This document shows, piece after piece, positions 12,934 to 48,585 of a stretch of 58,013 nucleotides of DNA. Below the pieces are notes generated by a model. That model saw only the letters and a list, made by a program, of their open reading frames with translations. It had not been told where the DNA came from and did no database searches. The translations under genes and the position numbers were made by a program. The stretch's first letter is position 1; each line of letters begins with the position of its first letter. This stretch comes from a virus. Its lineage: Duplodnaviria > Caudoviricetes. The stretch is taken from the IMG/VR virus record IMGVR_UViG_3300025671_000073, positions 1 to 58,013 of that record. One strand, 5' to 3'.

Positions 12934-14886
12934 TCAGTCGACGTCGCCCCAGTCTTTTTCAAGGGCGACGTCTACCTTGCTCGGCACCCTGAGCTCCAGA
13001 CCGTTCTCCATGATTTCGACTATTTCGTTTGCTTGCTCGTCGGTTGCAATGGAAAAGCACAGTTCGTCGTGGACCTGCAGCATGGGCTTGAGCCCCGCCT
13101 CGTAGCATTGCGCGAACGCCAGCTTCGTCTGGTCGGCCGCCGAACCTTGGATCAAGCGATTGAGGGCCTTGTAGGTGAACGCCCGGCGGATACCTTGACC
13201 AACCGTGCCGTACTCCTTGACGGCCTCTTCGTACTTCAGCGGCTTGCTGTATCCAAAACTGCGCGGCTCCCACATGTCGAACCGGCACAGCCGCCCATGG
13301 ACCGTTCGTATCTGCCCATTGCGCTCGGCCTGATCGCTGGCGACCGTGGCCAGCATACGGACAAACGGCACCTTCTCCTGATGCAGATCCAGCAGTCGCT
13401 TCGCTTCGTCCTCTGAGATTCCCAACTGGTTGGCGAGCTTGCCCTTCCCCATGCCGTACATGATGCCGAGATTCACCGTCTTGGCTTCCTTCCGGCTGAT
13501 CCCGGCCATGTCAGCCACCATTTGGTGCAGGTCGGCGTTGCCCTCGTGGAATTCCTTGACGATCTCATCGACCATCGTGCCACGCATGCGCGGCGGCAGG
13601 CTGGCGGCAAAGTGGGTCAAGAGCCTCGGTTCTTGGGATGCATAGTCAAAGCTGCCCCACCGCTCGCCCTCCTCCGGCACAAAGATGCCGCGAATCAGCT
13701 TCTTGATCTCCGGGTCGCGCGCTGGAATTTGCTGCAGGTTGGGGCTCGAAGAGCTGAACCTGCCGGTCACCGTGCCCCCGTCGTCGCTGCGCAGCTGATG
13801 CATCTCGCAGTGGATGCGACCCTTGTGCTCATATTTCAGGATACTGTCAATAAACGTGCTGTCCGCCTTGTCCGCCTCGCGGATCTTGTTGATCGTCTGC
13901 GCCACCTCGTTCGGATGGTCCTTCAGAAAATCTTTTGTGAAGGACGGCGCTCCGGCCTCGGTCCGAGGATAGGGAAGCCCCAAATCCTCAAACACCTTCT
14001 TGATGCTCTCGGCCGCCCACACCTCGACCTCGATGCCCGTCTTATCCTTGACGAATGCCAGCAGCTCTTGCTTCCGCTGACGCAAAATCTTTCGCGATCG
14101 ATCCGCCTGATCGAGATCCACCCGCACGCCTCGGGCCCGCATGTCGATGACGCCGGGCAACACGCGAGACTCAAGATCAAACACCGACCACAGGTCCTGC
14201 TTCTCGATCTCGGCCTTAAGGTGTTCCCACAGCTTGAGCGTCATGACGGCGTCTTGTTCGCCGTAGCCGCCGACAAACCGGGCAGGGAGCTTCCACATTT
14301 CCGCCTTGGGATCGATGCCCCACTCGGTTGCGGCAGCCCGCAAGACCTTCTCGTCCTTGCGCATGCCGATATATTCCTTGCCCAACAGGTCAAGGCGATA
14401 GCTGAACCGGTTCTCGTCCACCAGAGGCGCGGCGATCAGGGTGTCGATTATCGGACCTTGGACCTTGATTCCCTCGGCCATCAACCACCCGATATCGTAA
14501 GGCGCGTTGTGGCACACCTTCGTTATGCCCGGGGTATCCATCTGCTCTTGTAGCCATCCAAGGGTCATCGTCAAGTCCAGATTTGGACCATTGGCATGGC
14601 GGATTGGAAAGTAGCCGTGGAAGTCGCCGGCGGCCACGGCGATACCGACGACGTATCCATCGTTCGTGGCCCAGCCCGGCCCCTTGTTTGCGCCGAGGCC
14701 GTCGTCCCGGGTCTCAAGGTCGATGGCGATCGTCTTGTGTTTGGTCAAGTCTGGAAACTCGGTGGGCGCCGACCACTCGGTCTCGATGTTGTTGATGTCC
14801 AGTTTAAGCAGGAAGTCATCCGTGCCTGTGTCATACTTGTCTTTCACGCCTGTATTCTCCGAAAGTTCTTGACCGGTATCATACAC
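12934..14886 (-). CDS. polA: family A DNA polymerase with 3'-5' exonuclease
   Basis: DLET exo I, TGRFSSSSPNLQQIP, DYASQEPR (motif A), KTVNLGIMYG (motif B), QVHDEL (motif C). Confidence 0.97.
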   Translation of the reverse strand: MYDTGQELSENTGVKDKYDTGTDDFLLKLDINNIETEWSAPTEFPDLTKHKTIAIDLETRDDGLGANKGPGWATNDGYVVGIAVAAGDFHGYFPIRHANGPNLDLTMTLGWLQEQMDTPGITKVCHNAPYDIGWLMAEGIKVQGPIIDTLIAAPLVDENRFSYRLDLLGKEYIGMRKDEKVLRAAATEWGIDPKAEMWKLPARFVGGYGEQDAVMTLKLWEHLKAEIEKQDLWSVFDLESRVLPGVIDMRARGVRVDLDQADRSRKILRQRKQELLAFVKDKTGIEVEVWAAESIKKVFEDLGLPYPRTEAGAPSFTKDFLKDHPNEVAQTINKIREADKADSTFIDSILKYEHKGRIHCEMHQLRSDDGGTVTGRFSSSSPNLQQIPARDPEIKKLIRGIFVPEEGERWGSFDYASQEPRLLTHFAASLPPRMRGTMVDEIVKEFHEGNADLHQMVADMAGISRKEAKTVNLGIMYGMGKGKLANQLGISEDEAKRLLDLHQEKVPFVRMLATVASDQAERNGQIRTVHGRLCRFDMWEPRSFGYSKPLKYEEAVKEYGTVGQGIRRAFTYKALNRLIQGSAADQTKLAFAQCYEAGLKPMLQVHDELCFSIATDEQANEIVEIMENGLELRVPSKVDVALEKDWGDVD

Positions 14887-15613: not shown

Positions 15614-16055
15614 GAACGTACACTCCTGCTTCCATGAACATTTCCATCGACAGCGTCATATCATCCGCCCAGCGCTCGACAAAGGCCGGCTCTGGTTTCG
15701 GCCAGCAGACATGCTTGACCCCATTCTGGATCACCATGGCTGCGCATTGGGTGCAGCAGGGGTGTGTGCAGAACAGGGTCGATCCGTGGAGCGGGGCCGT
15801 GGCAAAGGCCATAGCGTTTTTCTCCGCATGCACGGTCATCTTGAGCTTGGTTTCGCGGTCATGCAACCGGGCGTGGCTGTCTTGGACGCCGCGAGGAAAC
15901 CCGTTGTAGCCGGCCGAAACAATGCGCCGTTTGTCGTCGAAGATCACAGCGCCAACCTTGGTACTTGGATCTTTGCTCAGCTTGGCAACATGTTTGGCCA
16001 TGTCCACGGCCCAGTCCCAAAGGCGCCGCTCTTCGAACGAAAACTCAGATGTCAT
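15603..16055 (-). CDS. dCMP deaminase
   Basis: SKDPSTKVGA, GYNGFPRG, HAEKNA, PCCTQC zinc motifs. Confidence 0.92.
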   Translation of the reverse strand: MTSEFSFEERRLWDWAVDMAKHVAKLSKDPSTKVGAVIFDDKRRIVSAGYNGFPRGVQDSHARLHDRETKLKMTVHAEKNAMAFATAPLHGSTLFCTHPCCTQCAAMVIQNGVKHVCWPKPEPAFVERWADDMTLSMEMFMEAGVYVHVG

Positions 16056-17559
16056 ATCTATTCCTCATACCGCTTTGAATTACATGCAGGTTGTGCTTAG
16101 CACGTGTGAAACCCACATAAAAGACCCGATGTTCGTCGTCCGGGAACCGAGATTCGACGGCCGCGCGTGTCGACCCAAGGTCCACGGCCACATTGTCGTC
16201 TTCCCCGCCCTTGTTGCTGTGGATTGTTCCGACCTTGATCCTTGGTTCTTGGGTCACGTCTTCACCCCGGCGCTCAAGCGCTCGGATGTAAGTTCTCTCG
16301 CGATCGTTCATCTTAATCACGGACAATGCATCTGCATTGTCACCGGCCTGTAGCCCAAAGCTACCTTGCAAATCGGAGATGTTATATGCGATTTGCGGGT
16401 CTGCTGCTTCAAGAAGTTTCTTGGCCCCGCGTTGCAGTACGCCGGGCGCCGTCTGTGCATACAGCTTCTTCATCTCTCCAGCGTAGATGCTGCCGCCACC
16501 GGCCAAGTGCCGCCACAGTGCGATGGAGTCTGTCAGCGATTCCCGAATGCTGCGCCGGCCGTTGATGCTGAACATAAACCCGTCGTCTCGCAGTGACTCG
16601 CCCCATTGTTGAGCCATGTAGTTCGCGCGCGTCATCAAGGTCCATGAACCTTGGGTCAGGTCAAGGAACTCCCGGTCCGGTTCAAACACCACCCTGCCCT
16701 CTCGGGTGGTTGGGTGGTAGGTTTTTGGAACTCGGTCCTTGATCCTGTGGACGATGCGCTGGGACAGGTCGAAGACGGAACGCGGAAGGCGGTAGCTCTG
16801 CTCGAGGATCTGGATTTTGGGCGAGCACTCAAGAAACTGCCTCACATCAACACCCGCCCAGCGGTGGATGGCTTGGTCATCGTCGCCGGCGAAGTACACC
16901 TCTTCGGCGTTGTCCATGAGCTTTTTGACCATGGCCCACTGCAAGGGGACAAGGTCCTGAGCCTCGTCGATAATCAACATCTTGAGCCGGGGCGCCTCGC
17001 CGAAATCAACGAACATGCTCAGCATGTCGACGAATGTCACCTTGCCGAGCTGCTGTCGGTAGACCTGCAGCAGGCTGCTGATCTTTCGCAGCATGGCAAA
17101 ACTCAGATCGTAGTCATCTGCATCCCGGAACTCCTGTTCCAAGGAGACCATCCGCATGGTAGCCCGTTCGATGATCCGAAGATACTTGTCCCCGCCACCA
17201 GCGGCGCTGTTCACGAGGCCGCTCAGGTCGTCGAGGTCCGCCTTCTCCCCATTGATCTCCATGCCCAGCTCATCGGCAAAAGCCCGCCAGTCGGCAGCGC
17301 TCATCACGTCCTCCTTCTTGAGGCCAAGCAGGTGGAAGCCGAGGGCGTGCAGGGTCTTGAAGTACGGCATGTCTTTGGGTAGGAAACCGAACTCTTGGGC
17401 TGCGCGATCGCGGGCCTCGTTGACAGCCTTTCTGGTGAAAGAAAGAAAGCCGATTTCCCACGGAGAAATTCCTCGGGACAAGGCCTCGTTGATAATCTGC
17501 ATTAGGCGATAGGTTTTGCCGCAGCCGGGAGGTCCTAAAATCAGGGTGCTATTTCGCAT
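16045..17559 (-). CDS. UvrD/REP-like SF1 helicase
   Basis: GPPGCGKT, IDEAQD, GDDDQAI, QSYR, TIHSNKGGE, YVGFTRA. Confidence 0.92.
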   Translation of the reverse strand: MRNSTLILGPPGCGKTYRLMQIINEALSRGISPWEIGFLSFTRKAVNEARDRAAQEFGFLPKDMPYFKTLHALGFHLLGLKKEDVMSAADWRAFADELGMEINGEKADLDDLSGLVNSAAGGGDKYLRIIERATMRMVSLEQEFRDADDYDLSFAMLRKISSLLQVYRQQLGKVTFVDMLSMFVDFGEAPRLKMLIIDEAQDLVPLQWAMVKKLMDNAEEVYFAGDDDQAIHRWAGVDVRQFLECSPKIQILEQSYRLPRSVFDLSQRIVHRIKDRVPKTYHPTTREGRVVFEPDREFLDLTQGSWTLMTRANYMAQQWGESLRDDGFMFSINGRRSIRESLTDSIALWRHLAGGGSIYAGEMKKLYAQTAPGVLQRGAKKLLEAADPQIAYNISDLQGSFGLQAGDNADALSVIKMNDRERTYIRALERRGEDVTQEPRIKVGTIHSNKGGEDDNVAVDLGSTRAAVESRFPDDEHRVFYVGFTRAKHNLHVIQSGMRNRYDI

Positions 17560-17902
17560 TTTGTTGCCTCACGTTTTTCTTTCCAGTTCCTCGCGGGCGG
17601 CCATGCAGCCACTCGCGCACTTCCTTGTAATACCACCGCTTGGTGGCGAACGGGTCATCCGCCCGGCCGAGATTGACAGGGGGAGGGAATTGTTCGTCCC
17701 GCACCCATTTGTAGATCACCGCCTCGGACACCCCAAACCACGCGGCGATCTGGCTGATCTTGATCATCCGCTCTTCCGGCGCCGGAAACTGGGCGTTCTC
17801 CAGCAACTGCATGACTGAGGCGGGCGACGTGTTCAGAAGCCCAGCCACCTTAGCTAAAATGTCTACTAGCTCGCGATCAGAACGGGACGTCTGTTTGGGC
17901 AT
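17549..17902 (-). CDS. AlpA/excisionase-like HTH protein
   Basis: IAAWFGVSEAVIYKWVRDEQFPPPV...RW; start position uncertain. Confidence 0.75.
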   Translation of the reverse strand: MPKQTSRSDRELVDILAKVAGLLNTSPASVMQLLENAQFPAPEERMIKISQIAAWFGVSEAVIYKWVRDEQFPPPVNLGRADDPFATKRWYYKEVREWLHGRPRGTGKKNVRQQNAK

Positions 17903-19430
17903 CGGCGTCCTCTATGTCTAGTTGCACTTCCGTCGTGTCAAAAGCCGGCACCTTCCACACCCGCACAGAAGCGTATGTGCCGTCCTCCTTCTTGACCTTC
18001 ATCACGGTGATGGCTTTGTCCGGGTCATCGCTCAGATCCTTGATGTATTGCTGGGCTTGCGGACGCGTCACCGCCTTGAAATCCTTCCGCTTCAAGAACT
18101 CCATCAGCCCTTGGATTTTGAACGCGGTGACGCCCTTGTCTGTCCAAGGCTTGCCCATTACGAGTTCTTCCGGCGCCATGGCGCGGGTGCGGCTGGTACA
18201 GAACTGCTCCAGCAGCTCCATGAACTGGCCCTTGGTTGTGAGCTCGGGCGCGACATCCGCCTCTGTAGCCTCGGCCATAAGGCCATTGACCAATGCGCCC
18301 CAGTCTTTGTCCTTGAGGACGTCAGGGCGCCGGTTCAACTCCTTCAGGCATTTCTTCTGAAACTCCCTCGGACTGTTCAACTCGTCCAGCGTCAGCTCAA
18401 TACGCTCCCCGTCGACGTTGACGTAGTAGAGGCGCGGATCGGATTTCATGATGGTCAGGCCCGTCAGAACCGGCATGAAAGATGAGCCGCCGCCCCCGCC
18501 GATGCCGAACTTGCACATGCGGCACTTGGCCTTGTCGCAGAAGTTGACCATGGGCGCTTGGTCGCAGAGATGACCGTAGTCCTTCCGACGGTGGGACTTG
18601 ATGACAGTCTCCTGCAGCTCCTTTGAGCTGAGCGGCGGGTTGATGTAGCGTCGATTGAACTCGTCGACCCCATCCTCCCAGTCGTCCGGCCGTTCCTTCT
18701 TGATCGACACGGTGGCATGCATCATGAAATTGTTTCTGTTCTCCGACACTCCCAGCGCCACAAGGGACTGAATGCAGGGTGGATACTCGGCCAGCTCGGC
18801 AACGTCCGGTCGCTGCTCAGCCAGCGCCGTTTCCAGATCCGTCAGGTTGCACCGCTTCTGATCAACCAAGTCCAAGAACTCCTCGACCGACATTGCGTTG
18901 CCGCTGGCGTCGAGAGCATAGCGCATCGAGCGCTGGGCGTTGTGGTACGGCAGGTTGATGAAGTTGCCCACGTCGCCTTTGTCGTGCAGCACGGCGTCTT
19001 GCTTGGGGAAGATTTCACGGCCGGCGAAACCCAGCAGTGCGGCAGCCTCGGTCAAATACTCTCGGACCACGGACGCCTTCTCCCACTCTTTGAGAAACAG
19101 GTAGATGTGTGCGCCGCCCGACTTGGAGCGGCATATGACAAGGGGCAGGCCGGCGGACCACACACGGGCAACCACGTCTTGCAGGTTCAGGTCGTAGTCG
19201 TCGACGTCGATGGCGCCAAACTTGCACATGTTGTTCGAGTTGATCGGAATAGACCCGATCCCCTGACCACCATTCAGGTGTGACGTTACGAGATCCTCGG
19301 TCATCGGCTCTCGGACCACGAAGCTTTTTGCTTCCGCTTTCCCAAGCCGGGTGGTTCTTCCTACCGTTGTCTGCCCGTGGGCCACCTCGGACCCCTCAAA
19401 GGCAGACATGAAACGTGCGGCGGTGTTCAT
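17877..19430 (-). CDS. AEP-family primase
   Basis: IDVD, RSKSGGAH, EIFPKQ, GNFINLPY motifs plus a Cys cluster. Confidence 0.85.
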   Translation of the reverse strand: MNTAARFMSAFEGSEVAHGQTTVGRTTRLGKAEAKSFVVREPMTEDLVTSHLNGGQGIGSIPINSNNMCKFGAIDVDDYDLNLQDVVARVWSAGLPLVICRSKSGGAHIYLFLKEWEKASVVREYLTEAAALLGFAGREIFPKQDAVLHDKGDVGNFINLPYHNAQRSMRYALDASGNAMSVEEFLDLVDQKRCNLTDLETALAEQRPDVAELAEYPPCIQSLVALGVSENRNNFMMHATVSIKKERPDDWEDGVDEFNRRYINPPLSSKELQETVIKSHRRKDYGHLCDQAPMVNFCDKAKCRMCKFGIGGGGGSSFMPVLTGLTIMKSDPRLYYVNVDGERIELTLDELNSPREFQKKCLKELNRRPDVLKDKDWGALVNGLMAEATEADVAPELTTKGQFMELLEQFCTSRTRAMAPEELVMGKPWTDKGVTAFKIQGLMEFLKRKDFKAVTRPQAQQYIKDLSDDPDKAITVMKVKKEDGTYASVRVWKVPAFDTTEVQLDIEDADAQTDVPF

Positions 19431-20908: not shown

Positions 20909-20969
20909 TTGACGAACATGCTTGTTGTTCGTAAGTTGTGACCGTAAAGGAGGAATAGATGACTGTCAA
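20909..20969. promoter_or_regulatory. overlapping divergent sigma70 promoters
   Basis: Plus: TTGACG(20909)-17-TAAGTT(20932). Minus: TTGACA(20969-20964)-17-TACGGT(20946-20941). Confidence 0.65.
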
Positions 20970-22425
20970 CTGGAAATATAAAACTGAACCCTTCGCTCAT
21001 CAGGTCACCGCACTGGAGCGCAGCATGGACCGAGACGCCTACGCTTTCTTCATGGAGATGGGCGCCGGCAAGTCCAAGGTCCTTATCGATACGATCTCGA
21101 ATCTCTACCTGCAAGGGGAGATCGATTTCGCTCTGATCATCGCACCCAAAGGCGTGTATCGCAACTGGACGAACAAGGAGATTCCTGAACACTTTCCCGA
21201 GGATGTACCCCATCGGGTCATCCGCTGGGTCGCCAATCCCAACAAGGCGGAGCAAGCGGAGCTGCGGGGCATCAACAAGAAGTTCGATGGCCTGACAATC
21301 TTTGTCATGAACGTCGAAGCGTTCTCCACGATCAAAGGCAAGGGCGCCGGCGAGTGGCTGGCCAAGAACCTCGGACCTCGGGGCCTGATCGGAATCGACG
21401 AGAGCACGACCATCAAGAACCACAAGGCCAAGCGGACCAAGGCGCTGATGAAGATTGGTAGTGGGTTCAAGTATCGCCGCATCCTGACGGGTTCGCCGAT
21501 CACCAAGGAGCCCATGGATATCTATTCACAGGCCGCGTTTCTCGGACCTTGGCTCTTGGGCTACAACAGCTTCTATTCATTTCAGGGCCGGTACGCGATC
21601 ACCCAACGCCGGACCATGGGTGCGCACTCTTTCCAGCAGGTGGTCGGCTATCAAAATTTGGAAGAGCTAACCCGCAAGATCGATAGTTTCAGTTACCGGG
21701 TGCTGAAAGAGGATTGTCTGGATCTTCCGCCGAAAACGTATACCGCTCGATACATCACGCTCACGAAAGAGCAAAGGCAGATGTATGACCAGCTTCGGCA
21801 GGAGGGGTTCCTTTTGCTGGAAGAGGGCGACACGGTGTCGACCCCGCAGGTCATCACGCTCATGCTGCGCTTGCAGCAGGTTATGTCCGGGCATCTCATG
21901 ACAGATGATGGGGAGCTGATGACGTTCCCGTCCGGGCGGATGGATGCGCTGTTGGAGATCGCAGCCGAAACCTCTGGCAAGATGATCATCTTCTCCCGGT
22001 TCAGGCACGACATCAAACAGATCGAGCAAGCGCTCAACAAAGAGTACGGCGAGGGCTCTGCCGTCACCTACTTTGGTGATACCAGCGTGGAAGCAAGAGA
22101 GCTTGCTGTCAAAAACTTCCAAGATCCTGTCGCCAAAACCCGGTTCTTCATCTCGAACAAGACCGGTGCTTACGGCATCACGCTGACAGCTGCTTCGACC
22201 GTGGTATACTATGCCAACGATTTCGACCTTGAGACCCGAATCCAGTCGGAGGACAGAGCGCACAGGATTGGCCAGAAAAACCCGGTGACGTATATTGATC
22301 TGGTTGCCGAAGGCACGATCGACGAGAAGATCGTGGAGAACCTGCGCAACAAGATAGACATGGGCGCCAAGGTTTTGGGAGAAAAGGCACGCGAATGGCT
22401 GAGCCTGAAACCGAAGACGAAGTAG
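20959..22425 (+). CDS. SNF2-like SF2 helicase
   Basis: MEMGAGKS, IDES, LTGSP, QSEDRAHRIGQ. Confidence 0.93.
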   Translation: MTVNWKYKTEPFAHQVTALERSMDRDAYAFFMEMGAGKSKVLIDTISNLYLQGEIDFALIIAPKGVYRNWTNKEIPEHFPEDVPHRVIRWVANPNKAEQAELRGINKKFDGLTIFVMNVEAFSTIKGKGAGEWLAKNLGPRGLIGIDESTTIKNHKAKRTKALMKIGSGFKYRRILTGSPITKEPMDIYSQAAFLGPWLLGYNSFYSFQGRYAITQRRTMGAHSFQQVVGYQNLEELTRKIDSFSYRVLKEDCLDLPPKTYTARYITLTKEQRQMYDQLRQEGFLLLEEGDTVSTPQVITLMLRLQQVMSGHLMTDDGELMTFPSGRMDALLEIAAETSGKMIIFSRFRHDIKQIEQALNKEYGEGSAVTYFGDTSVEARELAVKNFQDPVAKTRFFISNKTGAYGITLTAASTVVYYANDFDLETRIQSEDRAHRIGQKNPVTYIDLVAEGTIDEKIVENLRNKIDMGAKVLGEKAREWLSLKPKTK

Positions 22426-22802
22426 GTCTTCACACCAACGAAGAGAAGATGGCGCTCTGGCAGATGAACAAGATCGCCATCGAGTACAAGCGTGGTATCC
22501 TCAAACGCGGGGAGGCCACGCAACGGTTCTCGTACTGGGCCGAGCTGCCGCCCAGCATTTCGTGGATGCTCCTCGGACCTATGGCCGCGAGTAGCCACGA
22601 AGAACTGATGAAAGCGTTCCCGAAGTGGATCACCAAGGATAAGGAGCCGACGTTTGACTATGACCCTGCAAAAGCCACACGTGCTGCAAACCTTGCTCGA
22701 CGCAAAGAATCCGGACTGGATGCGGTTGGAAGACCTAGCTCAGCTCTTGGGGGAAGACGAAGAAAAGATCCGGGCAGCTCTGATCGAACTTCAGGACGAT
22801 GA
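22395..22802 (+). CDS. hypothetical protein
   Basis: ORF coupled to the helicase end; overlaps the next ORF. Confidence 0.45.
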   Translation: MAEPETEDEVGLHTNEEKMALWQMNKIAIEYKRGILKRGEATQRFSYWAELPPSISWMLLGPMAASSHEELMKAFPKWITKDKEPTFDYDPAKATRAANLARRKESGLDAVGRPSSALGGRRRKDPGSSDRTSGR

Positions 22803-22878
22803 GTTTGTCTTCCTACGCAACGGCTGGTATACGGCGTCGGCCTTTGCTAGACGGACGTTCGGCCGTCAGACCGGGTGA
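22660..22878 (+). CDS. winged-helix-like small protein
   Basis: AAGGAG upstream; LEDLAQLLGEDEEKIRAALIEL pattern. Confidence 0.55.
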   Translation: MTLQKPHVLQTLLDAKNPDWMRLEDLAQLLGEDEEKIRAALIELQDDEFVFLRNGWYTASAFARRTFGRQTG

Positions 22879-23030
22879 CCCTGAACGATCTGGCGATAGG
22901 CCTCACGGATCAAGACGCTCAGCTCCCGGGCCATGGACCTTTGTTCGTAGTCCGCTAGCTCCTTGAGCAATGCGTGGTCCTCGACGGGCACCGCGACGTT
23001 TTGAAACCGTGGCTTTTCTTTCTGCGCCAT
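22866..23030 (-). CDS. Arc/ribbon-helix-helix regulator (54 aa, not in ORF track)
   Basis: MAQKEKPRFQNVAVPVEDHALLKELADYEQRSMARELSVLIREA..., GGAG RBS. Confidence 0.75.
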   Translation of the reverse strand: MAQKEKPRFQNVAVPVEDHALLKELADYEQRSMARELSVLIREAYRQIVQGHPV

Positions 23031-23095
23031 AGTGCTCTCCATACAAATTTGTGCTAGGTTGTGTTATAGGTCAGTTGTTAGCAGGATACAAGCGC

Positions 23096-23734
23096 ATGCG
23101 TAAGATCGACACCATCGTGGTACATTGCACAGCCACTCGACCGGAGTGGTGGGCCAGCAAATCGGCCGAGGAAAAAGTCCGCGAGGTCCGAGACTGGCAC
23201 GTATCTGGGCGTGGTTGGTCGGATATCGGATACCACTACCTGATCGATCGCGACGGCACCGTGGTCCGAGGTCGTCCGATCGAGCGGGCCGGGGCCCATG
23301 CCAAAGGCCACAACGCCACCAGCATCGGCATCAGCCTGTTCGGGGGTCATGGGTCCACCCGCAACGACGACTTCAGCGACAATTTCACGGCCGAGCAAGA
23401 GAGCGCACTCCGCGCCCTGATCCAAGAGCTTGAGGCCAAGTACCCGATCCACAAGATCATCGGTCATAACGATGTCAGCGCCAAGGCTTGCCCGGGCTTT
23501 CAGGTTGGACCTTGGCTCAAGCATCGCCATGTACGTACAAACCCCGTACAGTCCAAGACAGTACAGGCATCTGCGGCGCAGCTCGCTACGGCGGCGGGCG
23601 GCGGCCTAGGTGCGCTTGCAGCGCTCGACGGGACGGCGCAGCTTGTGGCGCTCGGCTTGGTCGGCGCCGTGGCACTACTGGCTATATGGATCATGCGCGA
23701 GCGGCTGAAGGCTTGGGCCGCGGGTTGGCGCTGA
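23096..23734 (+). CDS. endolysin, N-acetylmuramoyl-L-alanine amidase with C-terminal TM segment
   Basis: VVHCTAT, WSDIGYHY, GAHAKGHN, GHND, KACPGF (T7-lysozyme type). Confidence 0.92.
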   Translation: MRKIDTIVVHCTATRPEWWASKSAEEKVREVRDWHVSGRGWSDIGYHYLIDRDGTVVRGRPIERAGAHAKGHNATSIGISLFGGHGSTRNDDFSDNFTAEQESALRALIQELEAKYPIHKIIGHNDVSAKACPGFQVGPWLKHRHVRTNPVQSKTVQASAAQLATAAGGGLGALAALDGTAQLVALGLVGAVALLAIWIMRERLKAWAAGWR

Positions 23735-23964
23735 TGTTCGGTCGGCTCCAGTTATACGCCATTGGCGTCGCCGCCTTCGCCGCCGGCCTGTTTGGCATTT
23801 ACCTCAAAGGTAAGAGCGCGGGCCGGGACGAGGTCGAGAACGAGCACAACAGGCGCCGCATTGATGCCATGCGCAAGGCAAAGGATGTACGCGATGAGAT
23901 CATGGATGATCCTTATTTTGTTGATCGGGCACAGCGCTGGGTGCGCCCAGATCGAGACGAATAG
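23734..23964 (+). CDS. i-spanin (Rz-like)
   Basis: N-terminal TM segment followed by a charged helix, directly after the endolysin. Confidence 0.7.
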   Translation: MFGRLQLYAIGVAAFAAGLFGIYLKGKSAGRDEVENEHNRRRIDAMRKAKDVRDEIMDDPYFVDRAQRWVRPDRDE

Positions 23965-24109
23965 CTACTGCGATATAGCTTCGCCGCTATATTTTGACGA
24001 CAGTCGAACCGTCATCTGGCTTTCCGAAAACGATAATATGCTTCTACGCGATATCATCATAGCCAACGAAACGTGGGCGGCGTTATGCGATGGCAAGACA
24101 TCTCTCTGA
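23894..24109 (+). CDS. o-spanin lipoprotein (Rz1-like)
   Basis: Overlaps the i-spanin in another frame; lipobox-like SAGC. Confidence 0.7.
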   Translation: MRSWMILILLIGHSAGCAQIETNSYCDIASPLYFDDSRTVIWLSENDNMLLRDIIIANETWAALCDGKTSL

Positions 24110-24300
24110 TAACCCATCGCGCCCTGACCGGGCGTGACTGTTCGTGGTGCGCTTGGGCATGGCACAAGCGGCTGGACAGGGGTTGGTCAGCACTGGTTTT
24201 ATTGGTAGGCAGGCGCCACTGTCGGCGAAGCTGGCTTCGTTACTTCACGAAAAGCTGATTTTGTGTCATGATTCTTGGGCAACCAGCAAAGGAACATGAC

Positions 24301-25098
24301 ATGGCATTTCGAATCCTGTCTCTTCTGGCAGCCTTGCTTACCGCGAATGTCGCGGCGGCTTGGACCGTTGAAGATATGAACAAGACCATCAACAGCGCCA
24401 ATTTCATCGTCGGGCGCGGATGCAGCGGCACTCTGATCTCGCTGGAACATCGGCTTATCCTTACCAATCATCACTGCATTGGCGATGCGGTTATCAAACG
24501 CCGCAAAGAGGTGGTCGAGGATGACGGCACGGTGGTCCAGAAGCAGGTCGAGGAACTGCGCGACATGGACGTGTCGCAGCGGATGTATGAGGACTACCGC
24601 CTTGTCGGTGAGGCCAGATACAAGGCCCAACTTGTTGCGCGGTGGCAGGAAAGCGATCTGGCCCTGCTGCAGGTGCGGGCCGATCTACCCAACAGTATCG
24701 CCGCCACGGTATTTGCCGGAGATGTGGTGGAGCGCGGCGAGGAGGTGACTGTTGTCGGAAACCCTCTGGGCCTTGATGCCACGGTCACACGCGGCGTGAT
24801 CTCGTCAACCAATCGAATGTTCCGCGTGTCTTGGGCCGAGGCCGAGGTGCCGTTCATTCAGGTGGACGCAGGCATCACGGGCGGCAACAGCGGCGGTGCT
24901 TTGTTCAACGCAGCGGGAGAGCTGATTGGCGTTCCAGCGGCTGCCGCACCGGGCAACGGGCACCTTGGTTTGGCCATCCCGTTCTTCCAAGTCCGGCAGT
25001 TTCTCGACGACAACTGCTGGTCGGAGGTGTGGGATGCAGAGGCACAGAGCCATGAGGTTTGTGTCGCCTCAAAAGAAAGTGAAGACGGGGATCAGTGA
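24301..25098 (+). CDS. secreted trypsin-like serine protease
   Basis: Signal peptide; LTNHHC, DLALL and GNSGG catalytic motifs. Confidence 0.9.
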   Translation: MAFRILSLLAALLTANVAAAWTVEDMNKTINSANFIVGRGCSGTLISLEHRLILTNHHCIGDAVIKRRKEVVEDDGTVVQKQVEELRDMDVSQRMYEDYRLVGEARYKAQLVARWQESDLALLQVRADLPNSIAATVFAGDVVERGEEVTVVGNPLGLDATVTRGVISSTNRMFRVSWAEAEVPFIQVDAGITGGNSGGALFNAAGELIGVPAAAAPGNGHLGLAIPFFQVRQFLDDNCWSEVWDAEAQSHEVCVASKESEDGDQ

Positions 25099-31899: not shown

Positions 31900-33927
31900 T
31901 TACCAATCCCCCCACCCGGCCGACCGGCTGGCCCAGTTGTCCGCGGCGATCGCCTCTTCCTCGGCGCGGATCTGCTCGCCGTATTTGGCTTCGCAGTCGT
32001 CGCACACCGCGCGTCCGCCGTATGGGTCAGTGCGTCCGCAGGGAACGAAGATCTCGCGGTAGCTGTATCCGCGGGCGACGTGGTAGCTCACTTTGTTTGT
32101 GCAGGTCATTGCTTGTCTCCTTTTGGGTGGGACGCCCGAAGGCGCCCCGCTGTGGTTATTTGACCCGGGCGCATTCGAACTCGCCGGGGTATTCTTTGCG
32201 TAGTTTGGCGAGGGCCCTTTCGGCCCCTCCCCATGTTTTCCAGCCGGGGTTGCTACTGTCGTAGAACCACTGCCAGACCTGACGTCGTTTGTGCCAGCGC
32301 TCAAGGTCCACGGCGCCCGCTCCGGGTTTTACTATGTGGTAGATCATTAGTAACGCTCGTCGAAGTATCCGGGCGGCACGTCGCCGTCCATCTCCATCTG
32401 GATTTCGCGCTCGATGCGCTCCTGTCGCCGCCGTGTGTCCTCCGGCGACTCGAGCTGCACGCATTGGGACTCTGGGAACATCTCCCGGATCTCGTCCCAT
32501 GCCTCGTCGCGGCTGGCTGCGGTGAAGGTGTGACCGAACTCGCATCCGGTCTCGTCGATCAATACTGCGTGATACTGTGTCATTGGAAGTCTCCTTTGAT
32601 GTAAGCGTGCGCGCTTTTGTGTGTGTTGAAGCATTGTGACAGGTCGTGCCGCTTCGTGTTGGGCAGCTCGATCACGGTGACGCCGTAAAGCTGCCCGTCG
32701 CCGAGTATGTTATCCCCTCGCGACAGCTCCCACACCATTTTGCCGCGCTTGCCGTAGTCCATGACGGTGGGGGTCATGAAGTTCACCTTGCCGTTGTACA
32801 CCCTGCGGAACACAGCCCTGATTTCGTCATGTTGCATGTCGTCTCTCTCCTCTGTGAGTAAGTGCCCGGCGACGGTGGCCGCCGGGCGGTGGTGGTTAGG
32901 CGTCTGCGAGATACTCGGCAGGCGTAGGCAGATACGGCTTGGTGATGCCGTAAGCTTCGAGCCACTCGGGCGTGGCTGCGACCAGCGTGCCCCACCGCTC
33001 GATCTCTGACCTGTAGGTGTCGCCACCCTCGAAGCTGCCGTAGGTTGCGTCGGACTTGGCCGCCACGAGCCATCGCGCGTAGGGGTCCTTGTCCTCCGAA
33101 CTTGGCGTCTTGTAGGTCTTGACGACGTGCCACGTCAGGTCGCCGCAGACGTAGATGGCGTAGGGCGACATGGTCGGGCGTGATTTAGCGAATGGGTTAG
33201 GCATCTTCGGTCTCCTTTGTGAGTTCTGCTGCGAGGTTCCACGCCATGCCGGCCGCGGTCCAGAGGTGCGGCCTGTCCTCCGGTGCGTGCCGCATGATCC
33301 ACTCCTCGATCACCTTCCAGCTGTCGGGCGTGTTGAACAGGCCCATCGGTTCGATTTGCATTGTAGTGCTCCTTGTGTGTTGTGGGGCGACGTTGCCGCC
33401 GCCCCGGGTTGATTACCAGATAACTTCGGCGTCTTTTGCCCGGATGATTGAGCAGATTTCGTATGTCGAACCCGGCTCCACCTCTTCGAGATTGAAAGCT
33501 ATATCCATCAGCTGGTCCAGCGTTAGGTCTAGTTCACCATCGACAGCGGTTAACATCGCCGGTCCGTCGACAATCCACGTGATGTAGTAGGTCATTTGTT
33601 CTTCCTTGTGTGTTGTGGGGCGACGTTGCCGCCGCCCCGGTTGGGTTAAGCTTCGATCTTGTCGGCTTGCTCCTGAGCATCGTTCAGGCCGTCGGTCAGG
33701 TGCTGGATCGTCGACTTGGTAAGCCAGTCGCCCTCGCACCGCATCGCATCGCCCGCCTTGCCGATCGCTTCGACCAGCTGGGTGTGCAGGTCTGCCGCAT
33801 ACCAGCGGTCCGCGCCCTTGCGAGCCACCTCACCCTGCAGAATGGTGCAGAGTGTGCGCATCTCGTAGACGGTCATCTCGATCCGAACCGGAACGTCGCC
33901 TGCGGTGGTGTATCCATATTTAGCCAT
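31900..33927 (-). other. early-type small-gene cluster (31900-32109, 32156-32347, 32347-32583, 32580-32837, 32896-33204, 33197-33361, 33413-33595, 33646-33927)
   Basis: Short ORFs, most with strong GGAG RBSs, several preceded by GC-rich hairpins. Confidence 0.75.
33374..33642 (-). repeat. duplicated hairpin-RBS leader
   Basis: GTGTGTTGTGGGGCGACGTTGCCGCCGCCCCGG occurs at ~33375 and ~33608. Confidence 0.9.
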
Positions 33928-33994
33928 CGTGTGTTCTCCTATGTGCGATGGTTGGTAGTGAGCCGCCCGACGGAAGTGCCGGGCGGCAGGGTGA

Positions 33995-34279
33995 TCAGAA
34001 TTCGATTTCGTCCGCGTAGGCGCGAGACCGAACGCTGGCCATGTTGCGGATCGACGACCAGTCGCCGTGATCGATCGCGTGCGTCAGGATCGTGCCGTGC
34101 TCGGCCTCCCACGCTCGGACAAAGAGCATCGCGTCGCAGTCCTCCTCAAGGTAGAGCATGTCGCCCTCGCGGTAGCTGTAAGCGCTGAAGTCGCCCTCTG
34201 TCAGGCCGACCGATGCAGCCTGTGCCTCGGACACCGCTAACCAGCCGTGACCTGCGTCGAAGTAGAATGTGAATCGCAT
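33995..34279 (-). CDS. GHGW/YLEEDCD-motif small protein, first gene of the early cluster
   Basis: GAGGAG RBS; DAGHGWLAV...SAYSY...LYLEEDCDA. Confidence 0.75.
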   Translation of the reverse strand: MRFTFYFDAGHGWLAVSEAQAASVGLTEGDFSAYSYREGDMLYLEEDCDAMLFVRAWEAEHGTILTHAIDHGDWSSIRNMASVRSRAYADEIEF

Positions 34280-34293
34280 GGATAAGTCTCCTC

Positions 34294-35126
34294 TGTTTGC
34301 GAACACCACACAACATGAGTCGTGGTGTATCCCGAACCCGCACTGAATTTTTTACAATGTCAAAGTGACCTGTGCCGCCGAAGGCACACAGGTCACTCAG
34401 CTCGGGTTTTTCGTCCGCCGTGACCTAGCCACAAGCACCTTTATCGTGAGGTGTCGGTGCTCCGCTGACACGCGAGACCACGGACGGAAAAACCCGGCAC
34501 TTTGACATTGTAAAAAATTCGGGGCCATCTGGAAGATACACTACCGCACTCATGTTGTTGTTGTGTGAAGAAACACGGTCGACGAGGGCAGGGCAGCGAC
34601 AAAGGCGAACTCAACTCCGTGGTTCAAGTCCCAAGCAGATCCCGCCCCAAGCGGGATTGCAGGGACGCAGGACCACGTAGTTGTGAGAGCCGGAGCATTG
34701 GTTGATGAAGCACAGCCATGGGGTGTCGGTTGACGGCGCGGGTGCATGTCCCTGTCGCTGACGACCCTTGTGCAACGATTAGGCGACGACGCAACCGACA
34801 CTTCATGGTTGTGTGAAGTCATCCAATGTGGACGCTGCCCTGTCCGAGGAGATCGTTTCGCCAAGACGTGCACCGGTCTTTTTACTCGCAACGCTGGCCA
34901 ACGTAGCCGGAGGATCCAAGGACAGGCAATGTCCTTGGTCGACTGCCGTTCGACGACGGCTCGATGACCGAGGGCTCGATGCCCTCGGTCATCGAATCAG
35001 GATGGTTGCGCGCGACTAGCGCGCTCCGCTGATACAACCTCTCGGGGGTTACTCCAGCTGTTCAGTGTCCGCGGCAGCGGGTCGGAAAGGGGGTCGACCC
35101 CCCTTTTCGGCCCCCCTCCGGTGGAG
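34294..35126 (+). ncRNA. large multi-domain structured element (ncRNA or folded ssDNA)
   Basis: Nested inverted repeats, including a perfect 23-bp pair (34345-34367/34498-34520), many further stems and G-T wobbles on the + strand; no credible ORF. Confidence 0.7.
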
Positions 35127-35232
35127 CTGAGCGCCTTTATTGCTGGTTTCGTAAATTCAATGCCCAGCAATTTCATTCCGTGCTTGGCATACCCCCTGTT
35201 CTCCAGAAAACGCCCCTGTCAGAAAACCGCTC

Positions 35233-35252
35233 AAAAATATGCGCATATTTTT
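35233..35252. promoter_or_regulatory. perfect 20-bp palindrome (operator-like)
   Basis: AAAAATATGCGCATATTTTT, 13 bp upstream of a -35 box. Confidence 0.6.
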
Positions 35253-35265
35253 TCATTCCGACTTG

Positions 35266-35294
35266 TTGACAACCCACAATCATTCCGCTACATT
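35266..35294 (+). promoter_or_regulatory. strong sigma70 promoter
   Basis: TTGACA-17-TACATT. Confidence 0.85.
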
Positions 35295-35300
35295 CAACCC

Positions 35301-35473
35301 CAGAACCAAGGTCCAAGACCCGAGCGCCGAGGCCCCAGAGGCCCACTGAGCGCCCATCCCGTCTCCGAGGCTCCCGAAGCCCGGACCTTGGTTCTCCCAT
35401 GCTCAACCGGAGACTCTCCTCCCTTGTTTCCGGTATGCCTCACCTGCCCCGGCCTTTGCGCCGGGGCTTTTTT
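35301..35473 (+). ncRNA. putative small RNA with anti-SD loop
   Basis: Lies between promoter and terminator; 13-bp stem (35302-35314/35383-35395); hairpin 35406-35434 with CUCUCCUCCC loop. Confidence 0.7.
35446..35473 (+). terminator. intrinsic terminator
   Basis: GCCCCGGC/GCCGGGGC stem followed by T6. Confidence 0.85.
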
Positions 35474-35514
35474 CTGGTAGGGTTTGCGGGACTTGACCCT
35501 CGGACCTTGGACCT

Positions 35515-36768
35515 ATGGCTGATCGAAACCCCCAAATCCCCGACCTCGGCGAAATGTTGGGCCTCCCTTCCGAGGAGCTGCAACGCCCTGTTCAACGGGG
35601 GGACCTGCTGGATTACTACCTTGGCCCGACGGGTATCCCCGACAGGTTGCGGGCGGCGAACGAGGTGTTGAACCCGATTGTTGCCCTCTCGGATGCAGGT
35701 CAGGACCTTCGCCGTGGGGATTATGTTGGCGCGCTGACCAACACGGCTGCGGCCGCAGTTCCAATTGTTGGCGGCCGCATGGCCATCAAGGCCGCTCGTG
35801 GTTTGCCGACACTTGCTCCCCGACAGTATGACGAGGCAGCCTCTGCGGTGACGGAGACCCTGACGGGCGTGACATCTCCCAAATCAACTTCTGCGACGGA
35901 CATGACGCGCCGCCAGTTTTTGACGGGTGTAGCCGCCGCTGGCGGCACTGCGGCCATGGGCCCAGACATTGTGGAGTTGGCCCGAAAGGCCGCCCCGGAC
36001 ATTGCGCGGCAGGCAGGTCCGTGGGAGGCGTTGGTCGCCCGAGGCAAAAACATTTCGGACAACCCCATACCGGGCCCGTTTTCAGACGCCGCTAACAAAA
36101 TTCCTTACGAGGAGTTAATGCGGATGGAGGAACTTAGACGCATCGAACTTGACGATCTGCAGGACGATGTCTATGAGACGGCGCTTTCCGACCCCGAGGG
36201 TTTCGCAGACACTATTTTGCGGAAAACCGACCCCGAAGACACGCTGGAAAAAATCGGAATCAACCGGCGGATGCAAGATGTTTTTCGAAGATCGGGCCTA
36301 GATTACTATAATCTTTCGCAAGGCGCTTTAAGAGAATACCCGGAGGAGGTCGCAAAGAGGGCCAATGTTTCAGTGGAGGACGTGAGCCGATATCTTGAAG
36401 AGATGGACGAGGACTATCAAGACTACCTTGCGATGAAGGGGTACGACAGGCTCGTAGATTACAACCCGGGACTTGCCGAAAAACTGGATAGAACCGCTAT
36501 CGGGATTGCTCGGGACAAGCTTCTTGACGGCGATATTGACGAGGTGAACAAGCTTATCGGTAATGCCCCTACGCAATTTATAGGCGTGAGCAATGACGAT
36601 TTTCAGCTTTGGAAGGCGCTCGAACAAAAGCGCCGTCAACTGGCGGATGACCAAATTGAAATGGCTCTTGACGTTGGCGCAATCGACGACGAGATGGCGG
36701 AGAATCTCAGAAAAGAACTGAGTGGACTCAGTGCGTCGGATATTTTTTATGAGACAGGCGCTTTTTAA
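35515..36768 (+). CDS. hypothetical (probable virion) protein
   Basis: 417-aa ORF with an internal MTRRQFLTG motif. Confidence 0.7.
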   Translation: MADRNPQIPDLGEMLGLPSEELQRPVQRGDLLDYYLGPTGIPDRLRAANEVLNPIVALSDAGQDLRRGDYVGALTNTAAAAVPIVGGRMAIKAARGLPTLAPRQYDEAASAVTETLTGVTSPKSTSATDMTRRQFLTGVAAAGGTAAMGPDIVELARKAAPDIARQAGPWEALVARGKNISDNPIPGPFSDAANKIPYEELMRMEELRRIELDDLQDDVYETALSDPEGFADTILRKTDPEDTLEKIGINRRMQDVFRRSGLDYYNLSQGALREYPEEVAKRANVSVEDVSRYLEEMDEDYQDYLAMKGYDRLVDYNPGLAEKLDRTAIGIARDKLLDGDIDEVNKLIGNAPTQFIGVSNDDFQLWKALEQKRRQLADDQIEMALDVGAIDDEMAENLRKELSGLSASDIFYETGAF

Positions 36769-47992: not shown

Positions 47993-48072
47993 GTTTGCAG
48001 CTCATGTATCCTACCCCCATCCCTGACAGCCCGCATGGTGCGCGCTGACACTAGCCACGACAGGAGACTCCA

Positions 48073-48585
48073 ATGGCTAATACGACTTTCTCTGGGCCGG
48101 TACGCTCGGAAAATGGTTTCAAGTCCATCACCAAAAACTCGACGACCGGTGCAATCACCGAGATCACGACCATGGGCGGAGCTCCGGTAGCTCTCGCTGA
48201 CGGCGATGTGACCCTGACCAATGCGACCCACAGCGGCCGCGTTCTGGTTGTTCCGGATGGCGGACAGGACAACACCTACACGCTGCCCACCCCGGTCGCA
48301 GGTGCAATGTTCACCTTCGTCTACGGCGGCGCAGCAGCTGACGCCACGGACTTTATCGTGGACGCAGGTTCGGACACCAACTTCTTCGTGGGCAATGTCG
48401 CATTCAACGACACCGACGATGGCGCAGCCTCTGTTGTTTTTGCTGACGGCGATTCGAACAGTGTTCTGCAGGTCAATGTTCCGGGGTCCGCGGTGATCAA
48501 TGTGATGGCCAAGGACGGCACCAACTGGTACGTCTGGGGTTCGGTCACAGGCGCCACTGCCCCCGCCTTCTCCGACCAAGCGTAA
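48073..48585 (+). CDS. virion structural protein
   Basis: MANTTFSGPVRSENGF, beta-rich. Confidence 0.7.
   Translation: MANTTFSGPVRSENGFKSITKNSTTGAITEITTMGGAPVALADGDVTLTNATHSGRVLVVPDGGQDNTYTLPTPVAGAMFTFVYGGAAADATDFIVDAGSDTNFFVGNVAFNDTDDGAASVVFADGDSNSVLQVNVPGSAVINVMAKDGTNWYVWGSVTGATAPAFSDQA

Follow-up and report, generated by a model that had tools for sequence, protein, structure and literature searches.

A modular element with a strand-biased fold in the control region of a freshwater phage: a candidate structured RNA outside the described families

Here, we describe an element of 833 nucleotides (nt), positions 34294-35126, in the viral record IMGVR_UViG_3300025671_000073; the window referred to below is the whole of this record, 58,013 nt. 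The element sits in a 1.2-kb gap separating two divergent gene blocks, of which the leftward one is called early on the strength of gene order, and it is the most tightly self-pairing stretch of the genome. The kinds of mismatch found in its helices mark the + strand as the folded strand, under selection to fold. The element is a composite of modules rather than one unit of 830 nt, and the unit supported by covariation measures ~85 nt, or ~200 nt if counted up to a T-run near the right-hand end. We class it as a new candidate structured RNA element, located in a phage control region and outside the described families, with a function suggested by its position only. That the folded molecule is RNA, where it would start and how it would act is what we infer, and the reading preferred here, a rightward structured non-coding transcript, is held tentatively, at somewhat less than an even chance.

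Folding of the element

Folded as RNA, the + strand reaches -440.5 kcal/mol against -313.8 +/- 6.5 for shuffled sequences (z-score, z, of -19.5; 0 of 20 shuffles as good), and its minimum-energy fold holds 308 pairs (74% of the 833 nt paired). The - strand reaches -398.2 kcal/mol (z -13.0), and DNA parameters give -236.9 for the + strand (z -13.5) and -224.3 for the - strand (z -15.1). When the genome was scanned in 300-nt segments at a step of 100 nt, with energy regressed on G+C, the four most structured + strand segments (starting at 34901, 34301, 34701 and 34601) and the two most structured - strand segments (starting at 34301 and 34901) all lay inside the element. An earlier reading made from the letters by themselves, here called the sequence-only reading, had named a series of stems including a perfect 23-bp pair and had expected an advantage over shuffles; every one of these stems was recovered in the minimum-energy fold or the repeat list, and the advantage is borne out on both strands.

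Strand specificity of the fold

Relatives of the locus were obtained via the 94-amino-acid (aa) protein encoded by the first gene of the leftward block. This protein has 36 homologues, and 476 relatives in metagenomes; two viral contigs and 80 of the 476 metagenome loci were retrieved; L-numbers denote these loci.

Fold energy separates the two strands unevenly along the element. Domain 1, a long rod-like inverted repeat, shows no asymmetry (-132.1 kcal/mol on the + strand vs -131.4 on the - strand, with 7 G.U pairs on each), domain 2 a strong one (-158.4 vs -123.9 kcal/mol; 12 vs 2 G.U) and domain 3 a moderate one (-146.0 vs -131.5; 9 vs 4). The raw energy gap was dropped as evidence on its own: gaps as wide as +/-30 kcal per 300 nt are met elsewhere in the genome, the genome-wide standard deviation comes to 12 kcal per 300 nt, and the ten most + favoured segments include none from the element. 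G.U pairs in the minimum-energy folds of relatives are likewise not consistently more numerous on the + strand (50 vs 52 in the rods, 36 vs 50 in the rest).

Since the raw gap is not exceptional in this genome, the strand claim is carried by a test of mismatch type. Sequences were folded with G.U forbidden, which imposes the same Watson-Crick scaffold on either strand, and the 1x1 and 2x2 mismatches enclosed by helices were counted. Over seven lineages read in the + sense, which share ancestry so that the counts are not fully independent events, G.T outnumbered A.C by 39 to 11 (share 0.78, binomial p 9e-5), and the reverse complements gave the mirror result of 9:42. The ratios were 6:0 in the window, 7:3 in L007, 5:0 in L013, 4:4 in L012, 4:0 in L015, 6:0 in L025 and 7:4 in L017; the excess is thus seen in five of the seven lineages, and it includes the rods of relatives. 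L008 (3:5), at 87% identity to L013, was not counted as a separate lineage; putting it in the place of L013 changes the total to 37:16. Coding DNA of the window gave 45:59 and 49:65. In 14 sets of dinucleotide shuffles of the seven regions the mean G.T share was 0.41 and the maximum 0.59, with ~12 G.T per set vs the 39 observed, and base composition predicts a share of 0.43-0.56. Inside the three-hairpin module described below the ratio is 12:3, six of the twelve being one inherited column.

The excess of G.T and depletion of A.C on the + strand imply that the helices tolerate G.T and are purged of A.C, and it is this spectrum, set against the shuffle share of 0.41, that argues for the + strand as the folded one. 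A mutational origin by deamination of an exposed + strand was rejected, since it predicts T over A on the + strand and the reverse is found in most lineages. The observation in the sequence-only reading that the non-Watson-Crick pairs are G-T on the + strand therefore holds and extends to relatives. The advantage it claimed for the + over the - strand survives as a matter of mismatch type and fails as a raw energy gap, with domain 1 symmetric. It was right in taking the + strand as the template, antisense to the adjacent early genes.

The conserved module and its surroundings

The core of the element is a module of three hairpins, H1 to H3 (Table 1). In the minimum-energy fold H1 pairs 34916-24 with 34930-38, and H3 pairs 34961-75 with 34981-95 in a perfect 15 bp. 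A covariance model, R1, built from H1-H3 matched 10 of 87 sources at E below 1e-4, always on the sense running from the early to the late side. The matches include the distant L022, which was absent from model building and where the module is again located in a gap between divergent open reading frames (ORFs); in every lineage, L022 included, it lies in the divergent gap and points to the late side.

A plain MAFFT alignment of seven sequences from H1 to the T-run yielded 41 consensus pairs with RNAalifold, 12 of them changed on both sides. This agrees with the covariation in a nine-sequence alignment, whose pair counts are flattered by its having been fitted to the model: there, 96.8% of cells are standard pairs vs 82.2% in column shuffles (29 pairs), and both sides have changed in 13 of the 29 pairs vs 6.5 +/- 1.5, a number that none of 500 shuffles attained. 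With the partners slid by 1-3 columns, at most 4 pairs remained changed on both sides. By the general criterion of pairs kept through two-sided changes, 34912-34996 behaves like a conserved structured RNA motif.

To the right of the module follow an unpaired motif, GGGGGTTACTCCAGCTGTTC, and a final hairpin. GGGGGTTACTCCAGCTGTTC is identical in the window, L007 and L008 and close in L013, L025, L024, L015 and L022, and an exact search of viral contigs returned two matches, both in contigs already known as relatives. The final hairpin pairs 35079-93 with 35099-113 in the minimum-energy fold and is followed by CCTTTTCGG; CCCCCCTTTT(T) is kept on the + sense in all seven rows of alignment A4, the relatives having four or five T.

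The pattern formed by H1 and H2 was found 40 times in 185,579 species genomes, about the chance expectation for its 18 fixed bases. By eye none of these matches carried the rest of the module and most looked coding-like, so no prophage or host copy was found in this set. In viral contigs the same pattern picked up one chance match and three more contigs belonging to the L017 lineage, and further relatives are suggested by short sequences resembling 34910-34984 on other contigs. A 12-mer, CCAAGGTCCAAG, occurs 12 times genome-wide with at most one mismatch vs 0.36 expected from shuffles (e.g. at 35306, 37158, 35499, 1514 and 16175), and related words, CCAAGG/CCTTGG, make the base of H1.

Variable domains

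By blastn against the relatives only 34905-35315 is recognisably conserved, at 67-73% identity in L007/L011, L008 and L013, with a 30-50-nt core that recurs in L025, L024, L015 and L017. In the 450-800 nt between the conserved core and the first early gene similarity between lineages is undetectable by this comparison, and these sequences fold above shuffles in every lineage (z -3.3 to -12.7 in the window's + sense, -1.5 to -9.3 in the other).

Domain 1, as far as sequences read side by side can tell, keeps its layout and base helix across relatives and has its interior replaced. Its helices in the minimum-energy fold are 34311-20/34548-57 (10 bp), 34323-31/34535-43, 34343-63/34502-22 and 34403-17/34481-96, with a side hairpin at 34364-74/34387-97. 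The repeat finder gave arms at 34340-67/34498-525 (93%), within which lies the exact repeat of Table 1; the interior (~34364-34497) is branched and differs between lineages. The rod folds above shuffles on both strands (z -9.4 on the +, -11.2 on the -), as do the rods of relatives (z -3.0 to -13.6 and -2.9 to -11.2). The window, L013, L008, L014, L017, L026, L025 and L022 share one order, namely early-side ribosome site, A/C-rich linker, base helix with a conserved core, one outward TTGAC box per arm, replaced interior and (GT)n tract, and L007, L015 and L012 hold variants of this plan. The TTGACA of the left arm faces the early gene at ~83 nt from its ATG. A TTGAC box occupies the left arm in all lineages read, and a conserved TTGACGA(C/T)GCA box was seen by eye in the right arm of L013, L026, L017, L025 and L022. 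The (GT)n/(CA)n tract differs in length among L007, L013, L015, L017, L022, L025 and L026, and no length variants were present in four sequencing runs compared.

Domain 2 has a closing stem at 34586-98/34833-45 and hairpins at ~34604-34691 and 34695-34829 in the minimum-energy fold. It had no blastn match in any of 86 loci and is lineage-specific; in L015, which is without a counterpart of domain 2, the (GT)n tract comes to within ~24 nt of H1. In L012 and L017, and also in L093, L094 and L096, a different structured right-hand segment stands in place of the window's motif and T-run, L017 keeping H1 and H2, and the sharing of this alternative segment suggests that modules are shuffled between lineages.

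The large phage non-coding RNA proposed in the sequence-only reading is accordingly sustained as regards a + strand-specific structure, and is not sustained as a single conserved unit of ~830 nt in the size class of GOLLD or ROOL, only 34905-35315 being conserved by blastn. Conservation and covariation, which that reading had left to comparison with relatives, are present in the module (13 of 29 pairs); domain 2 is without homologues, and the rod interior is replaced.

Table 1. Features of the element and of the neighbouring gene blocks
Feature	Position	Strand	Remarks
Domain 1 (rod)	34303-34566	+	~260-nt inverted repeat; base helix adjoins ribosome site of early gene
Left copy of exact 23-bp inverted repeat	34345-34367		TTGACA on - strand, TACAAT on + strand
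Right copy of exact 23-bp inverted repeat	34498-34520		TTGACA on + strand, facing rightward
G/T-rich tract closing the rod	34555-34570	+	(GT)n microsatellite; length varies in relatives
Domain 2	34575-34856	+	Closing stem and two long interrupted hairpins
Three-hairpin module	34912-34996	+	H1 34916-38, H2 34945-60, H3 34961-95
Optional G+C-rich hairpin	34997-35037	+	Only in the window and L013 (alignments A3, A4)
Conserved unpaired motif GGGGGTTACTCCAGCTGTTC	35044-35063	+
Final hairpin, then C-run and T-run	35079-35113 (TTTT 35104-35107)	+	15 pairs; candidate intrinsic terminator of a rightward transcript
94-aa gene	33998-34279	-	First of leftward block; from ORF list
Shine-Dalgarno complement of 94-aa gene	~34288-34293		Element begins ~20 nt beyond
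DNA polymerase	12937-14886		Leftward block, further on
Helicase	16048-17559		Leftward block
Primase	17880-19430		Leftward block
417-aa protein, unknown	35515-36768	+	First rightward gene

Coding potential, known families and further copies

The ORFs of the element do not look coding, in keeping with the earlier statement that no credible ORF is present: second-position G+C is 0.53-0.60 in eight internal ORFs vs 0.38-0.48 in eight real genes, and a Pfam search of five internal ORFs gave no match. Against Rfam 15, which includes GOLLD, ROOL, 6S, tmRNA and ribozymes, 34294-35126 had no match at gathering score. With E allowed up to 10 four short low rows appeared, from a snoRNA model (20.4 bits, gathering 51) and two or three microRNA models (15.7-20 bits). 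Eight related loci had no Rfam match either, and no tRNA or tmRNA is present. The claim that the family is an undescribed one, neither GOLLD nor ROOL, thus stands against Rfam.

A blastn search of 50,697 phage records with 34200-35520 found no match, viral contigs gave no exact hit for the rod's 23-mer, and the genome itself holds only the stretch and its own inverted arms. A miniature inverted-repeat transposable element was rejected as no dispersed copies were found. A limited look-up of the literature found no published description, and a term search of PMC11288001 returned no mention of intergenic region, promoter, terminal repeat, noncoding, hairpin or RNA polymerase.

Transcription signals

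On the + strand the promoter scanner reported a single site, 35266-35294, reading TTGACA-17-TACATT (10 of 12), and a relaxed scan added a weak site inside the rod at 34420-34447; neither scan yielded a promoter that could serve the rod or the module. Within the early gene the + strand offered by eye just a -35-like and a -10-like hexamer 10 nt apart. Both arms of the rod carry TTGACA and neither has a -10-like hexamer at 16-18 nt by scanner or relaxed scan, so that they lack the spacing of a sigma-70 promoter, in an Frpo-like reading too; a TACAAT inside the 23-bp arms was noted by eye as a promoter lead. In the early sense the relaxed scan gave a weak site in the window at 35272-35245. For L007 the scanner classed the final hairpin as a terminator. 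The L015 copy has no A-tract ahead of it and can therefore work only rightward.

Further rightward signals lie beyond the T-run. Directly after it, a block at 35124-35171 (35143-35171 in a narrower delimitation) is conserved in all lineages read. In L022 (~1560-1600, reverse strand) it reads TTGGTT-17-TATAAT rightward; the window's hexamers, judged by eye, are weaker and unflagged by the scanner, and 35143-35171 is possibly a second rightward promoter. Immediately before its -35 hexamer, the 35266 promoter has a perfect 20-bp A+T-rich palindrome (35233-35252). Behind the promoter come ~170 nt that show no sign of coding, a CUCUCCUCCC stretch and, with 40 nt left to the first rightward gene, a strong terminator (35446-35467). 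The late genes would need read-through of this terminator. The stretch 35266-35475 is partly conserved in L007 and L008 and has a weak, sub-threshold likeness in Rfam to small RNAs with similar 3' ends (anti-hemB 25.1 bits, SorX 20.8).

The preferred reading

According to the reading of the element as a rightward transcript, the gap would be a non-coding control region between the leftward and rightward blocks, from which the host RNA polymerase would produce an RNA of ~0.6-0.8 kb. The rod would be an inverted duplicate of the upstream region of the early gene and domain 2 a lineage-specific insert, and the transcript would end at ~35113, at the hairpin and T-run, just before the next rightward promoters. 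A rightward RNA is favoured by the T-run, which follows the hairpin on the same sense, and by the rightward units that come after it. Since the rod has a 5' arm antisense to the leader of the early operon, rightward transcription or the RNA itself might damp early expression. The conserved module could be recognised by a protein or by RNA polymerase and act as a cis-acting leader that decides on transcription into the late genes. Both strands may be transcribed, the rightward RNA then being antisense to the leftward leader.

Several observations weigh against this reading. If the rod is part of the RNA, the RNA must start to the left of it, and no acceptable + strand promoter of sigma-70 type was found there by scanner, relaxed scan or eye. 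The strongest promoter-like site of L015 (10 of 12) is at the rod's far edge and directed leftward; were it used, the early mRNA would carry the rod in its leader. The window's own rod shows no strand preference, bias is slight in L012 and L017 and reversed in L008, and the shared ancestry of the lineages and the flattered pair counts of the nine-sequence alignment, both noted above, count here as well. The final hairpin is unflagged as a terminator in the window, where it has 4 T and the scanner rule asks for 5 in 8, and also in L015 and L022.

A bolder version would see a modular strand-specific RNA of more than 0.6 kb, carried by an aquatic phage family and placed at the switch point, whose three-hairpin core reprogrammes the host RNA polymerase or recruits a protein and so times the switch from early to late genes, the rod and inserts being lineage add-ons such as anti-defence decoys or an antisense brake. 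We consider this version improbable as yet.

Alternative readings

The G.T bias cannot separate DNA from RNA, and the folded molecule might instead be the + strand as single-stranded DNA (ssDNA): a resected 3'-ended strand near an end to the right, a displaced or lagging template near an origin, or the free strand of an R-loop, serving priming, end protection or packaging. It would do without the + strand promoter that was not found left of the rod, and both strands fold far above shuffles with DNA parameters, although the + strand scores no better than the - strand in this respect. The phage brings its own replication proteins (primase, helicase and DNA polymerase), and the region lies upstream of the terminase block, as packaging sites and genome ends often do; yet the linear record has no end repeats and its position 1 lies within an ORF. 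TCGA(C/T), which occurs four times in the module at a spacing of 11-15 nt, looks iteron-like, but is only partly kept in L022 and L015. A conserved same-sense T-run behind a hairpin is an RNA signal, and a phage that injects double-stranded DNA has no obvious use for a single-strand promoter. On balance we regard folded ssDNA as unlikely. Less likely again is that the region acts as double-stranded DNA (dsDNA), the rod being a duplicated back-to-back promoter/operator, perhaps a cruciform under supercoiling, and the hairpins palindromic protein sites or an origin made of iterons, A+T-tract and palindrome. Outward TTGAC boxes on both arms in all lineages read, the early-side box 81-131 nt from the start codon, would fit such an arrangement, as would the exact 23-bp repeat with the only A+T-rich tract, the rod without strand preference in the window, the several loops that are true palindromes centred on TCGA and the variable length of the (GT)n tract. 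A cruciform or duplex site, however, predicts equal numbers of G.T and A.C rather than 39:11; protein sites should keep their sequence, whereas 13 of 29 pairs change on both sides; and no -10 element is properly spaced from any TTGAC box.

A long 5' leader of the leftward early mRNA, started from a promoter right of the rod or of the element, in which the rod would serve for RNase III cleavage or to stabilise the 5' end, with the A/C-rich linker and a strong ribosome site following it, is given a smaller chance than either form of DNA. It would be served by the early-sense site of L015 at the far edge of the rod, the weak one at 35272-35245 in the window and a - strand fold far above shuffles. 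The mismatch spectrum is reversed, however, with 42 A.C vs 9 G.T on the - strand, domain 2 loses 34.5 kcal/mol on that strand, the T-run is on the opposite sense, and the position of the conserved TTGAC relative to the start codon better fits a promoter inside the rod. Selfish or neutral DNA, that is, nested miniature inverted-repeat elements or decaying palindromes in a tolerant gap, is very unlikely. Terminal inverted repeats bound both domain 1 and domain 2, each of ~250-280 nt, and domain 2 and the rod interiors differ between close relatives, as such elements would; but the searches of the genome, the phage records and, with the 23-mer, the viral contigs turned up no further copy, phages sharing no more than 48-88% identity in the 94-aa protein have the layout in the same location, strand bias and covariation indicate selection, and contigs of four other freshwater runs held no deletion variant.

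Relation to known systems and significance

Like the GOLLD and ROOL RNAs, the element is a large, heavily paired stretch of phage DNA without ORFs. GOLLD and ROOL are conserved over their full length, whereas here ~85-200 nt are conserved and the rest is swapped between lineages; the element has no Rfam match and no tRNA genes nearby. In the put RNAs of phage HK022, which act in cis to carry RNA polymerase past terminators, close stem-loops with short single-stranded joints also have the sense toward terminators and late genes, and stems covary while joints are conserved. The number of hairpins is three here vs two, there is no sequence relation, and the likeness is one of position and form only. 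The complementary-strand origin of G4 type, the plasmid ssi sites and Frpo of the F plasmid resemble the element in their strand-specific hairpin clusters, in G.T tolerated on one strand and in a -35-like box within a long stem. They act on DNA that enters or exists single-stranded, and the present phage is a dsDNA phage with a terminase and without a properly spaced -10.

The RNase III sites in the early leaders of T7 and lambda are likewise long imperfect duplexes directly upstream of the first early gene, but they fold on the mRNA strand, where the opposite strand is favoured here, and the rod is several times longer. OOP of lambda and sar of P22 are non-coding transcripts opposite a regulated gene that end at an intrinsic terminator, as is predicted here. 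They are 60-80 nt long and overlap coding sequence, and the predicted transcript would be some ten times longer and lie mostly outside the overlap.

The region is a defined non-coding element at the point where early and late transcription part, supported by covariation and matching no described family, and the small size of its conserved core puts genetics and structure probing within reach. The variable modules represent an unusual cassette-like turnover of structured sequence. Should the bolder version of a modular switch-point RNA prove true, this would be a large regulatory RNA of phages, of a new class that evolves in cassette-like fashion; should the folded strand be DNA, it would mark an origin or a genome end, neither of which has been mapped in this phage group. 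Phages related to the HTVC023P type rank with the most abundant aquatic viruses, and the way in which they schedule gene expression without encoding an RNA polymerase is, to our knowledge, not known.

Genome setting and relatives

The phage is a complete 58-kb freshwater podovirus-like phage whose nearest cultured relatives are pelagiphages of the HTVC023P type. The 58,013 bases are the whole virus record, with a completeness rating of 99% and classed as linear without end repeats; the ORF at position 1 runs off the start of the record. The matching sequencing runs are freshwater metagenomes; no RNA run is listed among them, an absence to which no weight is given. By DNA polymerase comparison the closest cultured phages are the Pelagibacter phages HTVC023P and HTVC027P (48-52% amino-acid identity). 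When contigs of four freshwater DNA runs were compared with 33900-35700, no differences inside 34294-35126, no joints and no end pile-up were seen, in a comparison of contigs that cannot reveal termini, rare variants or strands.

The leftward genes run from 34279 downward, the small ones mostly without a known family, and are broken up by a rightward block at ~20959-25098 (SNF2 helicase, amidase, protease). The 94-aa protein has no family in Pfam or PHROG, and a homologue is present in Roseobacter phage CRP-810, where the gap between divergent blocks is only ~150 nt if the two ends of the record are taken as joined. After the 417-aa gene the rightward block of lysis, terminase and head genes continues with a GapR-like DNA binder, an endolysin-like protein, the large terminase (39452), the portal and a head protein (47025); the GapR-like gene suggests a freshwater alphaproteobacterium as host.

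The 417-aa gene is missing in the two closest viral contigs, L007 and L008, where the control region is followed almost directly by the GapR-like gene, and parts of it are present twice in L005. A Mu-gpT-DE RNA (Rfam RF03012, 59.6 bits), a known motif in its usual place, is found at 48021-48075 directly 3' of the head-protein gene, which is of Mu type. This match raised the possibility of a Mu-like transposable phage, which was dropped in view of the encoded DNA polymerase, primase, helicase and terminase.

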